DNA of 51,277 bases from sequence record NC_105513.1; one strand, 5' to 3'. Below are positions 2,964 to 51,277 of this stretch, in pieces. The translations under genes and the position numbers were made by a program. Every line of letters begins with the position of its first letter. The first letter of the stretch is position 1. Below the pieces are notes generated by a model. The model was not told the DNA's origin. It ran no database searches and worked only from the letters and a program-made list of their open reading frames with translations. Source of the DNA: a phage.

Positions 2964-3232
2964 TTCTTGATCTCCTCAGCAATAAACTTCAGGACTTTGC
3001 GCAAAAACACTTCATTATTGATGGTCGCTGGCAATTCTTCTTTTACTTCTTGCGGCAGGTAAACGTTGCCATGCCAGGTTAAGCAATCGTAGTTGATACG
3101 ATAAGAGCAAAGCCACTCGCAATCGTTATCCGCTTCCCAAATGCAGAGTTGCAGAACATCACCGAAATCCTCAACAGTCAGATCCAGACCGTGACGCTTT
3201 GCAAAGTTGAAAGTGGTTTTGCTGATGTTCAT
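2960..3232 (-). CDS. hypothetical protein
   Basis: 90 aa ORF, RBS AGGAG; first gene after promoter box 3296..3315. Confidence 0.55.
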   Translation of the reverse strand: MNISKTTFNFAKRHGLDLTVEDFGDVLQLCIWEADNDCEWLCSYRINYDCLTWHGNVYLPQEVKEELPATINNEVFLRKVLKFIAEEIKK

Positions 3233-3270: not shown

Positions 3271-3315
3271 ATTATGCCGAATCCAGTCAGGCACGTTTTA
3301 ACAAAAAGTGCTATT
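3271..3315 (-). promoter_or_regulatory. box-type promoter (box 3296..3315, -10 CATAAT)
   Basis: box, 22-bp spacer, CATAAT, leader CACATCGAAACGAGA; first promoter of leftward early block. Confidence 0.6.
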
Positions 3316-3539
3316 TGCTTACTGGTCATTATTCCATCTATTCCATTAATCAGGAATAACAGGAATAACTCATTCGCGATCACCTGGATTGGGAGACTTT
3401 GAGTTTGGTCAATTTTAATCAAGTGATTAACTTTTTGTGTGGAGGGGATAGAGAAACGCTGCCCTCTTGCATCCTTTCCGACAATCCTGGCGCGCGCATC
3501 TGTTATTTCTGTTCCCCATGTTATCTCAAATAAGCCTCC

Positions 3540-3868
3540 GCACTTTTAGATAACAGAATCGGCGTTCATCAACAAAAAGAACAAAATAAAATTTATATAT
3601 ATACCCATAAAATCAATAAGTTAGTTATATATGTATTTATATTTGTTATTTACTGTTGAGCTTGTTCTATGGGTATATGGTGGAGTGGTATTGTTTGTGG
3701 TGATATGTATGTGTGATTGTATATTTTTTAATCAATGGTGATATGTGGTGATTTTTGTATGTATATATATAGGTATGGAGCAATCCTCCGTCAACCAAGT
3801 CAACAAGGTCATTTTTAAAAGAAAAACCAATGACTTAACTGAAGCATTTTGTTATCTTTAAACGCGCC
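3540..3868. repeat. AT/GT-rich non-coding region A, homologous to region B
   Basis: ORF-free; shares exact 16-mer AAATCAATAAGTTAGT (3610..3625) and about 55 bp of flanking similarity with 32755..32812; GGTGAT iteron-like repeats. Confidence 0.6.
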
Positions 3869-3904
3869 ACATGCCAAAAATTGTTATTAAAACACAAAAA
3901 TACA

Positions 3905-3933
3905 TTGACACGTATGAAAGGCAAGGCAATAAT
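3905..3933 (+). promoter_or_regulatory. sigma70-like promoter TTGACA-17-AATAAT
   Basis: canonical spacing, about 35 nt upstream of ATG 3970. Confidence 0.5.
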
Positions 3934-3969
3934 GCATCCAGTTTAAACGCAACAAAAGGAGTAGACGCC

Positions 3970-4455
3970 ATGAGCGAAGAAAATATTAGCACCATGTCGC
4001 GTAGTGAGTTCTGCGATATGCTTCGCAGCCTGGGCGCGGCAATTGGTAGCGGTGAGCGTAATGATGTATTCATGCCAGCACTTTTTTTGTGCGCTAACGT
4101 GGAGAACGGCGAAGCAATTACGGCATCGTACATGCGCCAAGTGGTCAACCGTGTGCCAGAAGTAAAGCAAAAAGGCGTGATCAGCATTAAGCGAAAGGTG
4201 ACTGATGAGGGTGATGGCTTTGTGTTTACGCTCACTGAAGCCAAAAGCAAGCCTCGCGTTCTGACTGGTGAAGAAATCGACGAGATCGCAGAAAAGCGCG
4301 CAGAGAAGGCGGTAAGCAAAATTCTTAATCACCTGGTAAACGTAATGCCAAATATCACAGACCTGGAAGGCGACAAACTTGCTGGGGCGTGTGAGGCTAT
4401 CGGGCGCTACCAGGATATGATTCGTAAACTCGCTGGAGGAAAAGAGGATGAATAA
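3970..4455 (+). CDS. hypothetical protein
   Basis: 161 aa from MSEENIST; RBS AAGGAG; downstream of TTGACA-17-AATAAT promoter. Confidence 0.6.
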   Translation: MSEENISTMSRSEFCDMLRSLGAAIGSGERNDVFMPALFLCANVENGEAITASYMRQVVNRVPEVKQKGVISIKRKVTDEGDGFVFTLTEAKSKPRVLTGEEIDEIAEKRAEKAVSKILNHLVNVMPNITDLEGDKLAGACEAIGRYQDMIRKLAGGKEDE

Positions 4456-4708
4456 GGCATTAATTGGAGTTTTGATTGCAATCGCTACCCTTACCGGATG
4501 CGAAAAGGCATCTGAATCAACAGTTGTCGTAGGAGTGGAGTCAGATTTTAAAGTCGGTCGCCTGTTTACTGTTGATGGATGCACTGCGTACCGATTCTAT
4601 GACAACGGTCGAGCAATCTATTACACCAATTGTAAGGGCGCAACGGATAGCACATACCGCAGCGGCAAAAACGTAATGCACCAACAAGTCACAACAGATA
4701 TTAAATAG
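4448..4708 (+). CDS. putative lipoprotein
   Basis: 86 aa; N-terminal signal peptide with lipobox LTGC (MNKALIGVLIAIATLTGCEK). Confidence 0.6.
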   Translation: MNKALIGVLIAIATLTGCEKASESTVVVGVESDFKVGRLFTVDGCTAYRFYDNGRAIYYTNCKGATDSTYRSGKNVMHQQVTTDIK

Positions 4709-31679: not shown

Positions 31680-32318
31680 ATGGCTGAGTATGGAGCAATG
31701 TTATCTTTATCAAATGGGAATCCATTTGTCACACCAAAATCAACGCCATTTTGCTTATATGGCAAGTACACTTATTCATCTTCAGGTACTTCTGCCTATC
31801 ATAGTGCAAGCGCAAATATACCAGTAAACCAATCTTATCCATGCATGGCATTTATAAAAACAACAAACACACAGCAGCCAACTGCATTAATAGCTTACAG
31901 GAATGGTGGCAACATTTATGTAAACGGAGGAAATCCATATGGTCAATCATTTACAATGACTGTTTATATATTTGCCATATTCCCTCAAACTCTACCCAAA
32001 TATGGTATGGCTATATGGGATGCAAGCGGCAAGTTGGTTTTAACTAATGAAAGCAGGGTGCTAACAGATCTTGTTACAATTGGTACTCCTGGTTCTTCAG
32101 GTGGAACGAATATAGATCAAACGTTATCTGGTTCTTATGCCGTTTGCCCTTCAAGGCTTGGTGCGGTTATAGGTATGGGCGCTTCTGATATATATACATC
32201 ATGCAGGTATAATGGTTCAAGCACAAGGATAGGTGCAGCAAGGACAACGCCAGGAACAGGTTCTATAACAAATAACGGAAATTCAATAATTGCAATAAAG
32301 ACTGATATTTACGACTAA
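31680..32318 (+). CDS. hypothetical tail-fibre-associated protein (MAEYG family)
   Basis: 212 aa; begins MAEYG and has internal KYGMAIWDASGK repeat of the neighbour's N-terminus; Gly/Ser/Thr/Asn-rich. Confidence 0.5.
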   Translation: MAEYGAMLSLSNGNPFVTPKSTPFCLYGKYTYSSSGTSAYHSASANIPVNQSYPCMAFIKTTNTQQPTALIAYRNGGNIYVNGGNPYGQSFTMTVYIFAIFPQTLPKYGMAIWDASGKLVLTNESRVLTDLVTIGTPGSSGGTNIDQTLSGSYAVCPSRLGAVIGMGASDIYTSCRYNGSSTRIGAARTTPGTGSITNNGNSIIAIKTDIYD

Positions 32319-32320
32319 TG

Positions 32321-32348
32321 AAAAGGGGCTTTCGCCCCTTTATTTTTA
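32321..32348. terminator. bidirectional terminator between convergent genes
   Basis: AAAAGGGGC-TTTC-GCCCCTTTATTTTT, A-run and T-run on either side. Confidence 0.65.
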
Positions 32349-32349
32349 T

Positions 32350-32577
32350 TCACAGACTGCAATCAGCGTTTTTAAAGTTATCAATACTTACCCACTGAAA
32401 ATTAAACGGATAGCCAGCCTTAACAAGAGTGCGGTCGCCAACTCGTTTCACTCCGAAAATAGCAACTGAATACTGCATTCCGCTATTTTCATAAATAGCC
32501 GTGCATTCACGTTTAGGCATATTTGCACATCCAGTCAGTGCAACGGCTGCAATCAAAACGGCGATTAACTTTTTCAT
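32350..32577 (-). CDS. lipoprotein, possible Cor-like superinfection exclusion protein
   Basis: 75 aa; signal peptide with lipobox LTGC; RBS AAGGAG; own promoter box 32634..32651; convergent with tail fibre genes. Confidence 0.55.
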   Translation of the reverse strand: MKKLIAVLIAAVALTGCANMPKRECTAIYENSGMQYSVAIFGVKRVGDRTLVKAGYPFNFQWVSIDNFKNADCSL

Positions 32578-32607
32578 TTTGTGTCTCCTTAGTTGTTATT
32601 GGTTGCA

Positions 32608-32651
32608 ACTATACACGATCTTGCGGTGGGCGTTTAGCAAAAAGTGCTATT
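32608..32651 (-). promoter_or_regulatory. box-type promoter (box 32634..32651, -10 TATAGT)
   Basis: rc AATAGCACTTTTTGCTAAA-N22-TATAGT upstream of lipoprotein gene. Confidence 0.55.
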
Positions 32652-32699
32652 CTTGTTCTTTTTGTTATCCGGTGTTCTCAAATCTGCGGAGTCTTAAAT

Positions 32700-33076
32700 T
32701 TAGCTCAAAAAGTGAACAACAATAGAGCGCAATACATACAGATAAATATATACATACATATAAATCAATAAGTTAGTAGTATATATATTCATGTTTGTTC
32801 TTTATTGTTATCTATGTTTTGTGTGATTTTGTGCGTCTGGTGATTTTTCTGTGATTATGCATGTGTCAGTGGTTATGTGTGTCTATATATCTATATCCGG
32901 CGCAAATGAGGGAACAAGAGAACAAAAAGACAACAAAGGTATTTATCAATCACTTACATGTGAATTTTGTTATCCAATTCTCCTAGAACGTTGTTAGAAC
33001 AGAAAAAACAAAATAACTGTTGACTAAACGCATTAAATAGCTAAAATGCAGGCATACCAACCAACGAGGGCAAATC
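32700..33076. repeat. AT/GT-rich non-coding region B, homologous to region A
   Basis: ORF-free; 16-mer AAATCAATAAGTTAGT at 32762..32777; GTGTGATT and GGTGATTTTT segments shared with region A. Confidence 0.6.
33020..33047 (+). promoter_or_regulatory. sigma70-like promoter TTGACT-16-TAAAAT
   Basis: about 30 nt upstream of exonuclease ATG 33077. Confidence 0.5.
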
Positions 33077-34138
33077 ATGAATAAGTTTATGGCGTACACC
33101 AGCGAAGAAATGAGTAACGAGCTTTATCACGATCCAGAAGCGTGGACGGCTGATTATGTTAGCGGTTCAAGCCTGGCAGAGATTTACAGCACATGCCCGG
33201 CAGCGTGGAAGTTCAAGCCGCGTGATGACAAGAGCAAGGCGCTAGTTTTCGGTACGCAGTCGCATACCAACTTTGAAAGCAAGGAGCTTTTCGAAAAAAC
33301 CTATCGCCGTGCGCCAGCACCAGAAGAATTTAAGGATCTGATAACCAGCCAAACGGCGCTTGCTGCAAAGCTGAAATCATTTGGACTGAAAGGTACAACC
33401 GGAAAGACTTATCCCGAACTTATAAAAATGATGGTTGACTGCGGAGAAGACCTTAACGTCATGTGGTTAATCGACATGATCGCAGAAAGTCAGGCCAGGG
33501 CCGATGGGGTTCAGTTAATCGAGGCTAAAGATTACGATTCTTGCGTGGCAATGCGCCAGGTTCTGGAATCAATACCGGAACATAACGCATGTATGAATAG
33601 CAAGACGGCACAACGTGAATTATCGTTGTTCGGTGAAATTAACGGCGTAAAAGTCAAAGTGCGATGCGATCACGTTGACGTAACAAAGAACGTCACCGCA
33701 ACGCTTATTGATGGTTACGATGAAAAAGGTCAGCCAATTTGCCGCGATATTATTTATCCAGAGGCCATTGTGATCACAGACTACAAAACCACAATGAGCG
33801 CGAATCCGGCTGAGTTTATGCGCCTGGCTTACAATCACGGCTATTATTTGAAAATGGCGTTGCAATGTGATTTATTCAGAAAAGCGTATCCAGAAGAAAA
33901 GCGACCTATAGTTGTTCGACTGTTAGCGCAAGAGAAGAAAGAGCCTTATTTGCCGTTGGCTTTCCGCATGAACAGCGAGCAATTGAAGATCGGGCGCATT
34001 CAGTACATGAGCGTAATTAACCAGTTTGCCATGTGCCAGCAACATGACGTTTGGCCTTCGTATTCAAACGGCGAGCCGGAGGTTTGCCTTGATACTCCTG
34101 ATTGGGTGCGACGCCAGTTTAAGCAATATCTTATTTAA
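33077..34138 (+). CDS. putative recombination exonuclease (PD-(D/E)XK family)
   Basis: 353 aa; RCDHVD ... ITDYKTT nuclease-like motifs; precedes annealase-like and SSB genes. Confidence 0.55.
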   Translation: MNKFMAYTSEEMSNELYHDPEAWTADYVSGSSLAEIYSTCPAAWKFKPRDDKSKALVFGTQSHTNFESKELFEKTYRRAPAPEEFKDLITSQTALAAKLKSFGLKGTTGKTYPELIKMMVDCGEDLNVMWLIDMIAESQARADGVQLIEAKDYDSCVAMRQVLESIPEHNACMNSKTAQRELSLFGEINGVKVKVRCDHVDVTKNVTATLIDGYDEKGQPICRDIIYPEAIVITDYKTTMSANPAEFMRLAYNHGYYLKMALQCDLFRKAYPEEKRPIVVRLLAQEKKEPYLPLAFRMNSEQLKIGRIQYMSVINQFAMCQQHDVWPSYSNGEPEVCLDTPDWVRRQFKQYLI

Positions 34139-37714: not shown

Positions 37715-40111
37715 TTAACTCTCAAGAGTTGTTGGCTTGTTGATCAATGCAGAAACAGCCGCTTTTAACTCCTCTATTTCTTCTCTCATTGATTTCAAGT
37801 CTTCTTCTTGCTCCTTACATACCTGAAGTAAATATGCTGAAATTGCTGAGTAATCAACTTGTAAAAATTCAGCTTTACCTATTAACTCACTTCCGTCTTT
37901 CGTCGGCCCTTGAAGATAATCATAATCCTCAAAAGTGCTAACAGCTTCAGGAATAACTCCTTGAACTTCTTGTGCTATAACTCCAACATGACGAGATCCA
38001 TCTTTCTTAAGTGTGTATGAATACCCACACAGTTTACTAAGTCCATCCCTTGCATTCTTAAGTGGTTTTATATCTTCCTTAAGATTTACATCCGATCCCT
38101 GGTTGAAAGCGCTTGCGTTTACAGGTCCGTTAACCTGAAGATGCTTTGTGTTATTTGAGTTTAATTGCGCATAAAAAACCCACCCAGGGCCATTATCGAA
38201 ACCACACTCAATAACCGACAATCGATCTGACCCATTACCCCACAATTTGAAGGTTGCAGGGTGTGACGAGTTGCCGTCGTTCAGCATTTTGAAATACTTT
38301 CCGCTCGGACGGTCGATCTCTAAACTTGCGGCCTGGACGTATGCCTTGCCCGCAAAATTCTTTGTACCAAGCACAACGCCGTCTGTGATCAGATCAACCT
38401 TAGACGATGTAACATCGTTCAGGAATAGCGCGTTCGCCCCAGTGTCCTTCCCTAAAAACCAAAGACGCGTGCCTGCTGAGTTGTACCCTGTTACGTGCAG
38501 TGGTTGGTTGTTTGTTGACGTTGTTCCGTCGATCCGGAAGCCACCATTAGCGGTTGTAACTTTAATGCTGGGTACGGTCATAGCAAATGTGCCACTGGCT
38601 GCAAGGCCATTATAGGCAATCAGCTTGTTGTCATATGCAAGCTCACCATTGTCCCTTAATTGCAAGAATTTATTAGATGCCGAGTTGGAAACAGAAACAT
38701 CATTAGGCCAGGTGCGAAGAACTGCGCGCTTTTCGTCCCCTCTAGCCTCCACCGAAGAACCAGCGACCACCCCAGAAAAAGTCGGCGACGACCCCGCGTT
38801 ATACAGTTCGTACCACTGCGACCATGGGCCAGTCGTCGCGTTGCCTAGCCATCGAATCCAACGCCGCCCGTTGCCGTAGGCGGTGTACGTCTGTACGCAA
38901 CTCTTCGGATCGTTAGCACCGGATCTTTGCACCAGTAAACAACCCGCCATGTTAATAGGATAGTTACGCTCTGGGGTGGCGTTAGCCGACATGGACTGAT
39001 AATAAAATCCAGCCTTATCACCCTGAAGGATGTTAAGGTCTTCGCTAACCAACGTTGCCCGTCGCTCATGCATGACCTGAAGGTTGGCGCGCGCTCCCTG
39101 GTCGTTCGATGCGCCTGTCCCGCCGTCCCCGATCGCCACGTCACCGTTAGCACCCAGCTTCGCCAGTTCAATGGCGCCAACACTTCCCGACGCACCGTTG
39201 ATCGCGTTGTTGTTCCCCGAGAAAACTTTAACGCGCGAGGTTTGCCAATCAACGTTGATTGCAAAGAATGTATCCCCCGCGCCTCCACATACGCCAGGTC
39301 CGTATCTGAAAGGGGTCATCTCACCCGATGGGAACTGCGAAATATCATCGACGCGCCAGAATCCTCCTTTGACCGTATCGCGCAACCGCTTGAGCATATC
39401 CCTTACGCCAGTCGGTGCCGGTAATGTTACGCCAGCATACGGCACTCTATTTTGAGCTTCTGAGCTTTCAGCAGCAGCCGCTGCGCGATCAGCCTCTGTT
39501 TTAGCCTTGTTCGCACTGTTTGCAGCATTAGTTTCAGATGTTTTGGCGTTTGTCTCAGAAGTCTTCGCGGCACTAGCCGAGTTAGCAGCATTAGTTTCCG
39601 ATGTTTTAGCCGCATTCTTACTTGCATTAGCTGCATTTTCAGATGCTTTGGCATTAGTTTCCGATGTTTTAGCGTTTGTCTCAGAAGTCTTCGCAGCGCT
39701 GGCGCTTTGTTTTGCTGATTCAGCGCCTTGCTTGACTTGATTTACAAGATCCTTCAATCCTTCAAGATCGAAATCTCTAAAAAATTCAAGTGCGTCAGCG
39801 ATCTCTGTTTCTTTGCTTTGATAGTAACGCAATGTTTCAGCTACATCTTGAGCAAGACCATCAACAGTTATTGAGTCATGAAGTAAGATCGCGTAATTTG
39901 AACGGGCAACTACCGCGCCACCAGTTGTAATTGCACGAATGCTTGTATCGTTAATAACTTCAGTTATCACGGCAATCTGCAACGGCTGAGTTAAAAATAC
40001 AATAGTTGCACCAGGGCGAATGAGCGTTAGTTGCTCTCGCCATTTTGTGTCGTATCCAGTGATATAACCTTGCGCGTCCATTGACGCTTGTCCTGTTCTG
40101 TAAATTGCCAT
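37715..40111 (-). CDS. L-shaped (side) tail fibre, T5 pb1-like, with C-terminal intramolecular chaperone domain
   Basis: 798 aa from MAIYRTGQ (RBS GGAGAAA); AAKTSETNA-type repeats as in T5 pb1; C-terminal segment resembling S74 self-cleaving chaperone domain. Confidence 0.8.
39480..39720 (-). repeat. in-frame tandem repeats (about 62-bp period) inside tail fibre gene
   Basis: GCATTAGTTTC(A/C)GATGTTTT(G/A)GC recurs at about 39527, 39589, 39651; encodes AAKTSETNA-type repeats. Confidence 0.7.
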
Positions 40112-40169
40112 GCGCTTTCTCCAATGTTGCATGTTAATGTCAATGAAGATAATAGCATTTGCTAAGGCC

Positions 40170-40193
40170 AAAAAAAACCCCGCAATGCGGGGT
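40170..40193 (-). terminator. rho-independent terminator after primase-like gene
   Basis: ACCCCGC-AAT-GCGGGGT; minus strand followed by eight U. Confidence 0.65.
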
Positions 40194-41198: not shown

Positions 41199-41672
41199 TT
41201 AGCAATTAGTGCTTTCAGGTTTATACAGGAATCCTCCAGGCTCATAATCTGACATTCTTACCACTCGCAACATTTCGCGCTTATCACATCTCTTTGTGAG
41301 CGGTTTGCCATTGGAATCAAATCGCAGATCTGGACGACAGAATGATGCGCGATAGCCTTGACATCCATATTTTTTGTAATCGTTATGCACCTTTTGAGCG
41401 CCAGCGGCTGAAATCATACCGCGAACGCGCCACTGATTTACAGTTTGCTGGCTAACGTTAAGACGCTTTGCCATTGCTGACACGCTGCCGTAATACTCAA
41501 TAAGAATGTCAAGCCGTGCTTTTAGTCCGGCGCGCACTTCATCTTTTAAAACATAGTATCCTGTAGGGCGCTTGCGCTTTTTCTTATCTTTACCCCGTCG
41601 AGTTCCGTTATTGCCATTGATTGTGCGTTTGTCAATCTTACCAGTTGATACTGCGATTCGCTGTTCTTTCAT
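41199..41672 (-). CDS. putative DNA-binding protein
   Basis: 157 aa; basic N-terminus (KDKKKRKRP) and helix-turn-helix-like LNVSQQTVNQWRVRG. Confidence 0.45.
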   Translation of the reverse strand: MKEQRIAVSTGKIDKRTINGNNGTRRGKDKKKRKRPTGYYVLKDEVRAGLKARLDILIEYYGSVSAMAKRLNVSQQTVNQWRVRGMISAAGAQKVHNDYKKYGCQGYRASFCRPDLRFDSNGKPLTKRCDKREMLRVVRMSDYEPGGFLYKPESTNC

Positions 41673-41684
41673 TATTCATTCTCC

Positions 41685-41728
41685 AATAGCATTTTTTGTT
41701 AAACGATGATTTAATGATTGTGTATTAT
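41685..41728 (+). promoter_or_regulatory. box-type promoter (-10 TATTAT 41723..41728)
   Basis: AATAGCATTTTTTGTTAAAC; 21-bp spacer; upstream of helicase gene. Confidence 0.55.
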
Positions 41729-41761
41729 ACACGCCAAATGGCATTACTCAAAGGTTTTAGA

Positions 41762-48510: not shown

Positions 48511-48700
48511 CAATACGCTTTACAGTAACCAACAAAACTCCGTCCTCATCACACAAATTATGCTCTGATATATCAAACGCTCGCATGTCAGAATGAATGA
48601 GCGTTAACATTGCGTGCATGAAGTCGTCATGTGAGATTGAACTTACGGCGCAGAACTTCAATATTTTGTCTATTAGCATTTGACGTAAACAATTCTTCAT
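48506..48700 (-). CDS. hypothetical protein (start uncertain)
   Basis: ORF overlaps 48627..49019 in another frame; stop TAG embedded in promoter box. Confidence 0.35.
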   Translation of the reverse strand: MKNCLRQMLIDKILKFCAVSSISHDDFMHAMLTLIHSDMRAFDISEHNLCDEDGVLLVTVKRIE

Positions 48701-49019
48701 CGCTCATTTCTCCGATCCGTAAAGCATCTCTTACCCATTCGTTTTGCATACCTTCCAGGCTGTAAAGTTCAAACGAGAAAGGGCGATTTGCTGATCCTTT
48801 CTTACACCAGAACTTTCCACCAACTCCATCAAGATAACCAGCGGTCATCATTCTTGCGCAAAATTCTTTTGAAACGGCACTTGCAAACATCCTCGGAGTA
48901 AATCCTGCGGCCCTTGCGAGCCGCTCACATTCTCTGTGCTGAAAGATAAATTTTGCTATATGTTGACGTGTAAACCATTCGAATGACTCACACCATCGAT
49001 ACAGATCCAGAAGAAACAT
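48627..49019 (-). CDS. hypothetical protein
   Basis: 130 aa ORF downstream of the large ATPase gene. Confidence 0.45.
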   Translation of the reverse strand: MFLLDLYRWCESFEWFTRQHIAKFIFQHRECERLARAAGFTPRMFASAVSKEFCARMMTAGYLDGVGGKFWCKKGSANRPFSFELYSLEGMQNEWVRDALRIGEMSDEELFTSNANRQNIEVLRRKFNLT

Positions 49020-49021
49020 AA

Positions 49022-50605
49022 TTACCCCAGCAATGTTGGATTTACAAAAACAACGCCATTAATCACACAAATATAATTTCTTTCTTCAAGCATCGGCAGC
49101 AGTTGCGTTTCCATACGCTTCATTACGCCAGCCTGGCCAACAAACGGCTTAACTTTTCGTGCAGCCTCATATATGGCGCGCACATTCAAGATCCCCTTGT
49201 TAGCCTTACCGTGTCGAGTGATGATCTCGATTAGTTTACCCATTTCAGCATCATCACCAGCATAGCCAGAAGCGTTGGCGGCGCTAATGTATGTTTTGCT
49301 CAACTCGCTAAACATCAGCAGTGCTTCCTGAACGGTTTCAACCTCAATCTCTTTCGACTTTTGAGGGTATCCGCCAGGATTAAACCAATTGCGGATAGTG
49401 TGCAAAACCGAAGCAATCCTGATCACCTGCTTATCCATTTTGCCAAGCGCACCGCGCAGCATTGTATGCGAATACTTTCCGCCATCGGCAAGGTGCGGTT
49501 CCATCTCCTGACGAGCCATGTTAAGAACTCGCATTGCGGATTTGCTGATCTTAAGCTGGATGTTCGATTCACTCATGATGTTATGGATCAGCTTGAAATA
49601 TTGGCTTTTCAGTTCTCCATCAACAGGTTCATAAGTAGAATCACCGTTATCATCAACAAACTTTCTACGGCCTAAAAATGATTCCTCACGCACAAGCAAA
49701 TAACGCTCACTTACACCGATACCGCGCGATCCTGCATCCATGATGGCATTGATTGTTTCATCCTGGGCAATTACCGCCATACAGCCAAGAGCTTTAAAAC
49801 TCATATTGTTGTCAGCGTTTGCGCGAGCTATAGAAACATGACCGTGATCCCATGCTTTTAATACAAGTTCGCTGTTGGTTTTACGTTCGCTATTGGCATA
49901 TGTCAGACCTAAAAGGCTGTTAATACTTGTTGCCTCGTCTGAAATCACAGCAAAGTTACCCTGGCGATTGTTGATTCTTGCAAGTCCTTCCGGCGTTGTG
50001 TCGGACACAGGGAAAACGATGTCACACATCTTTTCCAGTTTTTCTTCCAGATCTTCTTTCTCCTGGTACAGAGATTCCATATCAGCGCCGGAGCGCTCGC
50101 TTTTCATCTCTTTTGCAAGACCTGCCAACTTTGCCTGAATCTTTTTTCTTTCCTTCTTTCGCTGTTCATTAATTCTTTCCACTTCAGCAACCATAGGAGC
50201 AAGTGCCAGGCTGTTAACGGCAGATTTACCAGTTGATGGAGGCTGGCTTGTGACAACGTAAAGAGCGGTTGGTTGATCCGTTCCGTGATACTCAACCGTG
50301 AAGCGTCCAAGCATTGCAGCAGACACGCAGCCGATAAAATGCATATATGCCGATGATTCAGGGAACTGAACTGATCGAGCAATGTTGCGCGCCAACTTAC
50401 CAACAACATCAATATCATTGCCAAGAGAAATTACAGGGTAGCGATCGTTTCCGTTATTAACATCATTAACCTCACCCCAAAAGCTGGACGATTGACGGTA
50501 TCCGTTTGCCTGAATGGACACGCGCACAGGAGACAATCCTTGTGCATCAGCTAATTCGATAATTTGTTTTGGTGTTAGTTTATTGGTTTCAAACGAAAAA
50601 TTCAT
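49022..50605 (-). CDS. putative P-loop ATPase (replication-associated?)
   Basis: 527 aa from MNFSFETNK (RBS AAGGAG); deviant Walker A SQPPSTGKS and Walker B-like FAVISDEA. Confidence 0.55.
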   Translation of the reverse strand: MNFSFETNKLTPKQIIELADAQGLSPVRVSIQANGYRQSSSFWGEVNDVNNGNDRYPVISLGNDIDVVGKLARNIARSVQFPESSAYMHFIGCVSAAMLGRFTVEYHGTDQPTALYVVTSQPPSTGKSAVNSLALAPMVAEVERINEQRKKERKKIQAKLAGLAKEMKSERSGADMESLYQEKEDLEEKLEKMCDIVFPVSDTTPEGLARINNRQGNFAVISDEATSINSLLGLTYANSERKTNSELVLKAWDHGHVSIARANADNNMSFKALGCMAVIAQDETINAIMDAGSRGIGVSERYLLVREESFLGRRKFVDDNGDSTYEPVDGELKSQYFKLIHNIMSESNIQLKISKSAMRVLNMARQEMEPHLADGGKYSHTMLRGALGKMDKQVIRIASVLHTIRNWFNPGGYPQKSKEIEVETVQEALLMFSELSKTYISAANASGYAGDDAEMGKLIEIITRHGKANKGILNVRAIYEAARKVKPFVGQAGVMKRMETQLLPMLEERNYICVINGVVFVNPTLLG

Positions 50606-50894: not shown

Positions 50895-51277
50895 TTATAC
50901 ATAGCCTCAAACAAATGACAGCCACCAGCGGAAAATCCTACTTCTTCGCGGTATAGCGTCCAGCGGTCGCCAGCTTCATCAAAAACATAACCAGCAACAG
51001 CACCAAGAGCGCGACCTTGCTCAATCTGGTAACGCTTTCCTTCTTTGAAATGTTTTTTGCACGGGATCTTGTGATCTACAAAGGTGCATTTAATTGTTTT
51101 TGTCTTGATATGACGATAGTCAGACTCAACAGCGTTTTGCCACTTGCTACCCTTTGTAATGCTCTTTACCTGGAATTGCTCCAACTCGATCACATCATCG
51201 CTACCAGCAATTTTTTCGTATACAACTTTATAACGACCGTTCATCAAAACGTTGGTTTTATTGCAGATAACTTTCAT
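50891..51277 (-). CDS. hypothetical protein
   Basis: 128 aa; ATG is the last 3 bases of the window; its RBS AGGAG and promoter lie at window positions 1..76. Confidence 0.55.
   Translation of the reverse strand: MKVICNKTNVLMNGRYKVVYEKIAGSDDVIELEQFQVKSITKGSKWQNAVESDYRHIKTKTIKCTFVDHKIPCKKHFKEGKRYQIEQGRALGAVAGYVFDEAGDRWTLYREEVGFSAGGCHLFEAMYK

Follow-up and report, generated by a model that had tools for sequence, protein, structure and literature searches.

Two related intergenic regions of a T1-like coliphage are candidate replication origins that could instead control early genes

The genome in sequence record NC_105513.1 (51,277 nt; hereafter the window, meaning the whole stretch of DNA that was analyzed) is assigned by BLAST to the genus Hanrivervirus (Drexlerviridae, Tempevirinae) and represents a T1-like coliphage. 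Region B is the 499-nt gap at 32578-33076 between the leftward cor gene and the rightward exoVIII-erf-ssb genes; in BLAST comparisons, Escherichia phage JLBYU09 is 100% identical throughout it. A relative, region A, is found between two early operons, one leftward with its end at 3232 and one rightward with its start at 3970; in this gap the element proper covers about 3500-3935. The two related regions are some 450 bp each, and each is located between divergent transcription units and divergent promoters. Together they are the best candidate yet for the replication origin of the T1-like phage family, although they could instead control early genes.

A sequence-only reading, made from the letters of this DNA, had described a non-coding element at 32700-33076 with a GT-rich segment at 32815..32885, a box promoter on its left and a TTGACT-16-TAAAAT promoter on its right. 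The element itself is confirmed, but its left limit lies at about 32650 instead of 32700, and the functional unit runs from there to the promoter. The G+T-rich segment is real and extends over 32815-32896. The box is present at 32631-32652 on the minus strand, as one of 17 copies, with the -10-like hexamer TATAGT, and the right-hand promoter occupies 33020-33047 with 10 of 12 consensus positions. That reading did not include the phased lineage-specific hexamers, the second site of the integration host factor (IHF) type, or the homology that reaches the promoter-proximal part, and it put forward no mechanism. The features of region B and its neighbors are as follows.

32350..32577, minus strand: coding sequence of cor (superinfection-exclusion lipoprotein), left neighbor of region B, taken from the open reading frame list and annotated as Cor in JLBYU09, G29-2 and T1
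32608..32652, minus strand: cor box promoter, with the box ATAGCACTTTTTGCTAAACG at 32631-32650 and the -10-like TATAGT at 32608-32613
32654..32678, plus strand: iteron triplet 1, TGTTCT-n3-TGTTAT-n4-TGTTCT, with starts at 32654, 32663 and 32673
32685..32691, no strand assigned: short G+C motif TGCGGAG, found as its reverse complement CTCCGCA in region A and as CCGCAGAAT or GGCGTAAAT in other lineages
32714..32723, minus strand: inverted degenerate iteron copies GAACAACAAT, left of the AT-rich core
32731..32830, no strand assigned: AT-rich, (TA)n-rich core and candidate DNA-unwinding element (DUE), the least stable 100-nt interval of the genome
32762..32777, plus strand: 16-mer AAATCAATAAGTTAGT shared with region A, with an IHF core consensus at 32763-32775 after an A/T-rich tract
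32796..32820, plus strand: iteron triplet 2, TGTTCT-n4-TGTTAT-n3-TGTTTT
32815..32896, plus strand: G+T-rich spacer that contains GTGATT repeats and has CTATATATCTATAT at its end; lineages differ in its sequence, but its strand bias is conserved
32897..32907, no strand assigned: second G+C motif, CCGGCGCAAAT, found as CCACCGCAAAT, GCGGCGTAAAT or CCCGCGAAAAAT in other lineages
32911..32935, minus strand: inverted iteron cluster GGAACA-AG-AGAACA-AAAAG-ACAACA (in T1, GTTACA / GTTACG / TAGACA)
32944..32956, plus strand: second IHF core consensus, TATCAATCACTTA, with the inferred transcription start about 100 nt downstream
32964..32974, plus strand: promoter-proximal iteron ATTTTGTTATC, present as the same 11-mer at 3846-3856 in region A
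32996..33010, minus strand: inverted pair next to the promoter, AGAACA-GAA-AAAACA, with the -35 hexamer 10 nt downstream (in T1, ATTACA-n5-ATTACA)
33020..33047, plus strand: predicted σ70 promoter TTGACT-16-TAAAAT (16-nt spacer) for exoVIII-erf-ssb
33077..34138, plus strand: coding sequence of the exoVIII/RecE-like nuclease, right neighbor of region B

The corresponding features of region A are these.

3320..3500, no strand assigned: A-specific segment (GGAATAACAGGAATAAC and flanks) that region B lacks
3501..3935, plus strand: region A, the paralogue of region B
3501, 3510 and 3519: starts of the hexamer triplet, with inverted copies at 3550 and 3578 and further repeats at 3644 and 3663
3571-3670, AT-rich core; 3610-3625, the 16-mer; 3670-3760, G+T-rich stretch
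3905-3933, plus strand: σ70 promoter TTGACA-17-AATAAT

The sequence-only reading had taken region B to hold the second copy of an element repeated in the same orientation, and this claim stands. The 16-mer AAATCAATAAGTTAGT is exact at 32762-32777 and 3610-3625, on the plus strand both times, and it falls within a colinear local alignment of about 225 nt between A (3501-3724) and B (32654-32876). The score of this alignment is 59, as compared with 14.3±2.2 in dinucleotide shuffles (z=20) and 26.4±4.0 in shuffles that keep composition per 30-nt block (z=8.2). BLASTN aligns 131 nt of the two regions at 69% identity (E=5e-18). The likeness extends into the promoter-proximal parts, where the 11-mer ATTTTGTTATC lies 54-59 nt upstream of the -35 hexamer in each region.

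The most distinctive components of both regions are short repeats. The hexamer TGTT(C/A/T)(T/C) forms three same-strand triplets with a spacing of 9-11 nt (3501-3524, 32654-32678 and 32796-32820), which, all of them within A or B, are the only phased triplets of this kind in 51 kb, as compared with 0.02 in local shuffles. An unbiased k-mer count agrees, with TGTTATC enriched 29-fold and TTGTTCT 37-fold in the two regions, and phased short repeats confined to the origin are one mark of an iteron-type origin. About 17 hexamer sites are spread over 450 bp, in direct and inverted orientation. Inverted clusters flank each IHF-type site, with the G+T-rich spacer and the two short G+C motifs between them, and in a single-strand fold the stretch at 32714-32723 pairs with 32792-32815, forming an inverted repeat around the IHF-type site. 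Phage T1 has TGTAAC/CGTATA/TGTAAC at the position of triplet 1 and TGTAAC-n3-TGTATA-n3-TGTAAC at that of triplet 2, and all six copies of TGTAACA in its genome are within its own A and B regions. The two copies within the T1 genome differ in repeat sequence: region B uses TGTAAC, and region A (T1 positions 48675-48836 and 1-538) has four copies of CGTAAT, with three of TGTTAAT at 9-10 nt spacing near the promoter.

Between the arrays, regions A and B contain the two least stable stretches of the genome. By nearest-neighbor free energy (ΔG) in 100-nt intervals, 32731-32830 in B (z=4.68) and 3571-3670 in A (z=4.64) are well separated from the third-ranked interval (z=3.39), and the same two regions rank lowest at 60, 100 and 200 nt (z=4.6-5.0; calculated stability). 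They are also the two most AT-rich 100-nt intervals, and TA steps number 20 per 100 nt in each, where the genome averages 5.4. An adjacent AT-rich unwinding element, a second mark of iteron-type origins, is thus present as far as calculated stability goes. The G+T-rich spacer alongside is weakly conserved between genera; its GTGATT repeat is enriched 6-fold in A and B.

For the host factor, the sequence-only reading had suggested IHF among others, and the shared 16-mer does contain a perfect match to the IHF core consensus. The core AATCAATAAGTTA, which matches the consensus WATCAANNNNTTR, begins at 32763 and 3611 with an A/T-rich tract 5' of each. Genome-wide there are nine core matches against 3.8 expected, four of which are in A (3417 and 3611) and B (32763 and 32944), all on the plus strand, in regions that make up 2.2% of the sequence. 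Each region therefore carries two. Related lineages hold the 16-mer site as AATCAATAGTTTA or AATCAATGAGTTA. The T1 group has its proximal IHF-type site at an equal distance but inverted; there, WATCAA and TTR are retained while the NNNN occurs in six variants, a pattern that indirectly supports IHF binding.

Conservation was followed across Drexlerviridae with an alignment of the 500 nt upstream of exoVIII in 45 viral contigs. The σ70 promoter is kept everywhere, as are the positions of the repeats, whereas the repeat sequence depends on the lineage: TGTTCT, TGTTTC, TGTTTA, TGTATA, TGTAAC (the T1 group) and TGTAAT are found at homologous positions, and a de novo motif search per locus returns identical lineage motifs. 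A hexamer that changes with the lineage points to a phage-encoded binding protein. The sequence-only reading had staked itself on conservation in related genomes. Within Hanrivervirus, sequence identity in region B is 89-97%, and in tunaviruses it is about 72% across the whole region. Both regions are present in T1, TLS and damhaus with the same architecture despite sequence divergence; in damhaus region A, the sequence has diverged and the order of the parts is unchanged. The first gene downstream of region A varies among close relatives, and there too the architecture is retained. In 14 T1-group genomes, column identity is 0.93 in region B versus 0.80 at third codon positions of exo, and iteron columns are 95% invariant versus 76% for other columns. 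The argument of the sequence-only reading for function rather than chance gains from both results, as the likeness of A and B survives shuffling (z=8.2-20) and region B exceeds synonymous sites in conservation.

The promoters at the edges of the two regions are of two kinds. In the right-hand σ70 promoter, TTGACTAAA...GCTAnAAT is kept in all Drexlerviridae lineages aligned. It is predicted here from its -35/-10 match and this family-wide conservation, and the activity data come from its T1 homologue PrecE, 150 bp upstream of recE (exoVIII), which is active as a reporter in E. coli (PMC6737242). PrecE is repressed by Pir (Orf23) and by cyclic AMP-CRP, and Pir activates the T1 promoters Pdam and Phol (PMC6737242). 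The second kind is built on a 21-nt box (ATAGCAC-n3/4-TTGNTA) with 17 copies, one of which adjoins each of A and B; examples are found at 4705, 8217 and 44204 on the plus strand and at 3314, 32650 and 48509 on the minus strand. Every copy has a -10-like hexamer (CATAAT, TATAAT, TATAGT, TATATT and others) 21-22 nt after TTGNTA. A σ70 -35 element would need a shorter spacer than this, so the boxes look like activator-dependent promoters with a box center near -43. The 21-nt intergenic repeat aaATAGCACnnnTTGnTAAAA is the sole repeat family described earlier in T1-like phages (PMC11447400), and the TLS paper lists its role as an open question. The box and the hexamer arrays are distinct, in that the box is conserved across genera at a fixed distance from a -10 hexamer, whereas the hexamers are lineage-specific and confined to A and B.

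The regulator named above has a homologue in this phage.

41199..41672, minus strand: homologue of Pir (T1 Orf23), a Cro/YdaS-type helix-turn-helix regulator, 57% identical to T1 Pir

Since the box is kept between T1 and this phage and the hexamers have changed, Pir is a likelier binder of the box than of the hexamers. As a hexamer binder Pir is disfavored, although its recognition helix differs between lineages: the Pir-activated promoter Pdam of T1 has a conserved 21-nt box and no hexamers, and this phage has not kept the hexamer that T1 carries in the Ppir spacer. Next to pir itself, 41673-41760 holds the pir promoter TTGAGT-16-TATAAT on the minus strand, followed by a box oriented the opposite way, toward the gene of a superfamily 2 (SF2) helicase. 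One bound activator could turn on the helicase gene while blocking pir, which agrees with the report of Pir autorepression in T1.

Phased lineage-specific repeats, IHF-type sites, two melting minima and divergent promoters form the joint signature of an iteron-type origin. The interpretation preferred here, tentatively and at a little short of an even chance, is that A and B are twin iteron/IHF/DUE replication-origin elements (provisionally oriA and oriB) that also serve as early-promoter operators. A phage-encoded protein would bind the phased hexamers, and IHF, by bending the AT-rich core, would bring together the inverted clusters on both sides. Negative supercoiling from the divergent promoters may then assist the opening of the (TA)n core and, beside it, of the strand-biased G+T stretch, with a helicase loading at the opened core together with the primase and SSB. 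The promoter-proximal inverted hexamers probably double as an operator of the σ70 early promoter, in the manner of pSC101-type inverted repeats. No origin and no iterons were found in T1-like phages in the genome papers of TLS and SU57 (PMC11447400, PMC7718038), and a literature search for a Drexlerviridae origin, IHF dependence or mapped transcription starts returned nothing, nor any published description of the arrays. The observation holds up, and the element is conserved and, to the extent that the literature was searched, undescribed; the kind of element, a repeat/IHF/AT-rich control region, is a known one.

The best candidate for the hexamer-binding protein, judged from its predicted structure, is a helicase encoded toward the end of the window.

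49022..50605, minus strand: DUF3987 helicase (MCM-like, superfamily 6 or SF6), 527 aa, with a C-terminal winged helix; candidate iteron-binding initiator

The DUF3987 assignment has a Pfam E value of 1e-43, and no sequence homologue was found among Protein Data Bank entries. An AlphaFold2 model of the protein has a mean predicted local distance difference test (pLDDT) score of 89.6, and the top Foldseek matches of this model are all MCM2-7 subunits (E=3e-5). The winged helix corresponds to residues 446-527 of the model; modeled alone without an alignment, it scored a pLDDT of 58 and was not used for fold searches. It is less similar to its counterparts than the ATPase core is, with identities of 0.49 versus 0.62 to T1 and 0.68 versus 0.84 to TLS. 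DUF3987 proteins are SF6 helicases that serve the replication of mobile elements (PMC11724360), and membership in such a family, together with the winged helix, makes a self-loading, origin-recognizing helicase plausible. The other encoded replication proteins are a Zn-ribbon primase, the SF2 helicase and SSB; no further DNA-binding proteins were detected among the early genes by Pfam. A fuller form of the proposal, in which two paralogous IHF-shaped origins carry lineage-specific 6-bp iterons read by the winged helix of a self-loading MCM-like DUF3987 helicase and the arrays throttle the early σ70 promoters, is doubtful when taken as a whole. If it were true, the long-missing origin of a classical phage family would be located, and the family would offer a bacterial-virus model for sequence-specific origin recognition by an MCM-like helicase; the plasmid-like persistence of T1 would also be accounted for.

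Several observations weigh against an origin at either region. No DnaA boxes are found in A or B at up to one mismatch, and GATC occurs once per region as compared with 5.5/kb genome-wide, that is, depleted rather than clustered. The cumulative GC skew has its minimum at 3614, but this merely tracks the coding strand and was discarded as origin evidence. The distal IHF core is not kept in the TLS and T1 groups, which limits the case for IHF to this phage and the relatives nearest to it. The iteron type covaries weakly with the winged helix, and phylogeny confounds the signal. A T1 fragment with the proximal repeats is under transcriptional control by Pir and CRP, and a purely regulatory role would thus account for the promoter-proximal third at least. 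In addition, DNA synthesis in T1 relies on phage recombination genes, which leaves room for an origin-independent mode.

The main rival is a purely transcriptional role, which is unlikely on balance. The hexamer arrays would be operators or enhancer sites for Pir, the homologue of T1 Orf65 or another early protein, and IHF bending together with supercoil-sensitive AT-rich DNA would set the strength and timing of the two σ70 early promoters and the divergent box promoters, for example in early-gene shut-off. Both regions lie between divergent transcription units, and at the end of each is a strong σ70 promoter that is conserved and whose -35 adjoins inverted hexamers. About 100 nt before the inferred start, in the stretch ranked fifth for instability, lies the proximal IHF-type site, and the 150-bp T1 PrecE fragment that is repressed by Pir and cyclic AMP-CRP includes both the proximal repeats and this site (PMC6737242). 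However, about 17 sites over 450 bp, together with extreme melting minima that lie 250-300 bp before the promoters, exceed the usual needs of a promoter, the arrays are on no other promoter of the genome, and the gene after region A differs among close relatives while the architecture is constant. In addition, the box, which is the likelier target of Pir and is present in Pdam, is conserved where the hexamers are not, so that the hexamers need a different protein. A transcriptional role alone accounts well for the promoter-proximal third and less well for the melting minima and the distal arrays.

A packaging or recombination element, meaning a pac-type terminase-recognition site or a preferred entry site for Exo and Erf, is improbable for the pair, although it fits one part of region A. 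The A-specific segment at 3320-3500 is about 90% conserved even in those Hanriverviruses whose A core has diverged, and it is recognizable in T1. It contains GGAATAAC direct repeats and an inverted TTATTCC; the GenBank records of T1, TLS, G29-2 and Sazh begin in or beside it, and restriction digests map the pac of TLS to region A. This segment is probably the pac region, and the pac sites of both T1 and TLS map to the intergenic space of region A. The pac of phage P1 likewise consists of short repeats and an IHF site, strand-exchange proteins favor G+T-rich DNA, and region B abuts the recombination genes. The segment where the records begin, the most conserved part of A, has no counterpart in B, however, and classical work on T1 is said to have found a single pac site. 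The P1 arrangement of GATC hexamers clustered around an IHF site is also missing, with one GATC per region. For recombination, the G+T-rich parts of A and B contain neither Chi nor any one-mismatch Chi sequence.

A separate observation concerns Chi in the window as a whole, where 44 sequences are within one mismatch of Chi (GCTGGTGG) as compared with 26±5 expected. These are mostly on the plus strand within plus-strand genes, and the single exact Chi is at 50922 on the minus strand.

That A and B are centromere-like sites, for partition or tethering in the plasmid-like carrier state reported for T1, is very improbable. Phased repeats flanking an IHF site do resemble P1 parS, N15 has dispersed centromeres near promoters, and extrachromosomal persistence of T1 has been reported (PMC6737242). 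Against this, Pfam scans show no ParA/ParB-type pair, the sole small P-loop protein having weak kinase-like matches, and the element is strongly conserved in phages held to be strictly virulent. It is scarcely credible that A and B have no specific function and are AT-rich spacers between divergent operons homogenized by gene conversion. Low-complexity AT/GT-rich sequence does align easily and the G+T spacer is poorly conserved between genera, but the likeness outlasts composition-preserving shuffles (z=8-20), region B is above synonymous-site conservation, and the architecture is kept across genera while the motif covaries.

Other identities for region B were set aside. A structured RNA is rejected, as folding energies equal those of shuffles on both strands (z +0.12 and +0.33); Rfam has no match in the whole window at the gathering threshold and none in 32300-33200 at E≤1. 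Two small open reading frames of 41 and 48 aa at 32851-32997, called as genes by some automatic annotations only, are interrupted by an indel of 2 nt in the PGN590 sequence, which is 89% identical, and other lineages lack them. No matches to region B were found in plasmids or in 5,426 E. coli genomes.

Some further observations were made in the surroundings of the two regions and in related records. One small lipoprotein gene lies near each region (4448-4708 on the plus strand and 32350-32577 on the minus strand); their signal peptides and lipoboxes are alike (MNKALIGVLIAIATLTGC and MKKLIAVLIAAVALTGC), and at the DNA level the genes share a 47-nt inverted repeat that is 74% complementary. The minus-strand gene at 37715-40171, for an 818-aa tail-fiber-like protein, has tandem repeats of 21 nt at 39525-39703 that specify a SETNAKT-type repeat. 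This gene is unlike its counterpart in JLBYU09 and is the source of most of the extra 2.3 kb of the window. Finally, 18 unannotated 'Campylobacter phage' records in GenBank (within MG065636-MG065687) are 94-97% identical to the 32300-33400 region, and look like mislabeled or contaminant assemblies of T1-like coliphages.

As the genome has no other iteron-like arrays and no other extreme melting minima than those in A and B, the question of an origin in the T1 family becomes directly testable. T1 belongs to the original set of T phages, and phages related to it are common as laboratory contaminants and as candidates for therapy. If the role is regulatory instead, A and B would be the control regions of two conserved early promoters and would point to a lineage-specific DNA-binding protein. 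Either way, they are landmarks for annotating and engineering T1-like phages.

Among known systems, the nearest models for a transcriptional role are the Mu early operator and the IHF/stress-induced duplex destabilization (SIDD) upstream activating sequence of ilvPG. In Mu, the early operator O1-IHF-O2-O3 between Pe and Pc combines multiple short operator repeats and an IHF site with divergent promoters, and in ilvPG an IHF site lies within supercoil-destabilized AT-rich DNA upstream of a σ70 promoter. Regions A and B differ from Mu in having no Mu-type repressor and in arrays that extend 400 bp from the promoter, and from ilvPG-type systems in the location of the least stable DNA, 250-300 bp upstream as compared with about -100.

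The iteron plasmids provide the models for an origin. In pSC101 and R6K γ, an AT-rich region with an IHF site stands beside three direct iterons, and in pSC101 inverted copies overlap the downstream promoter. The origins of Staphylococcus aureus pathogenicity islands (SaPI) have short lineage-specific iterons flanking an AT-rich stretch, which are read by a helicase-initiator. Compared with the iteron plasmids, A and B lack a DnaA box, have 6-mers in place of 18-22-mers and are duplicated 29 kb apart; no initiator of the Rep family was found in this phage.

A closer parallel to two loci with one short iteron is the satellite phage P4, in which phased 8-bp type-1 iterons TGTTCACC are present at both ori and crr (annotated record NC_001609). 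As in A and B, the P4 repeats are direct and inverted, and they are spaced at 10-11 bp with adjoining AT-rich DNA. The P4 iteron core TGTTC is found in the Hanrivervirus and TLS lineages as well, although T1 differs (TGTAAC), and the Zn-ribbon of the T1-family primase is of the same type as that of P4 α. A and B are nonetheless not of the P4 type, which is defined by TGTTCACC iterons and the α C-terminal domain: the TGTTC core is present in some lineages only, and tblastn found no homologue of the α origin-binding domain in the window. Moreover, primase and helicase are one protein in P4 α, whereas T1-like phages have a separate helicase and primase belonging to other families (SF6 DUF3987, SF2).

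Finally, the Bacillus phage SPP1, a pac-type siphovirus of about 45-50 kb, reportedly has two distant, related origins, oriL and oriR, which are bound by G38P and combine repeated boxes with an adjacent AT-rich unwinding region, as is said to have been described by Pedré in 1994 and Missich in 1997. No organizer resembling G38P or λ O was detected among the scanned phage proteins, A and B have no sequence similarity to the SPP1 origins, and they lie between divergent promoters with IHF-type sites. What the two systems have in common is the general plan, namely two distant copies with short repeats and AT-rich DNA.

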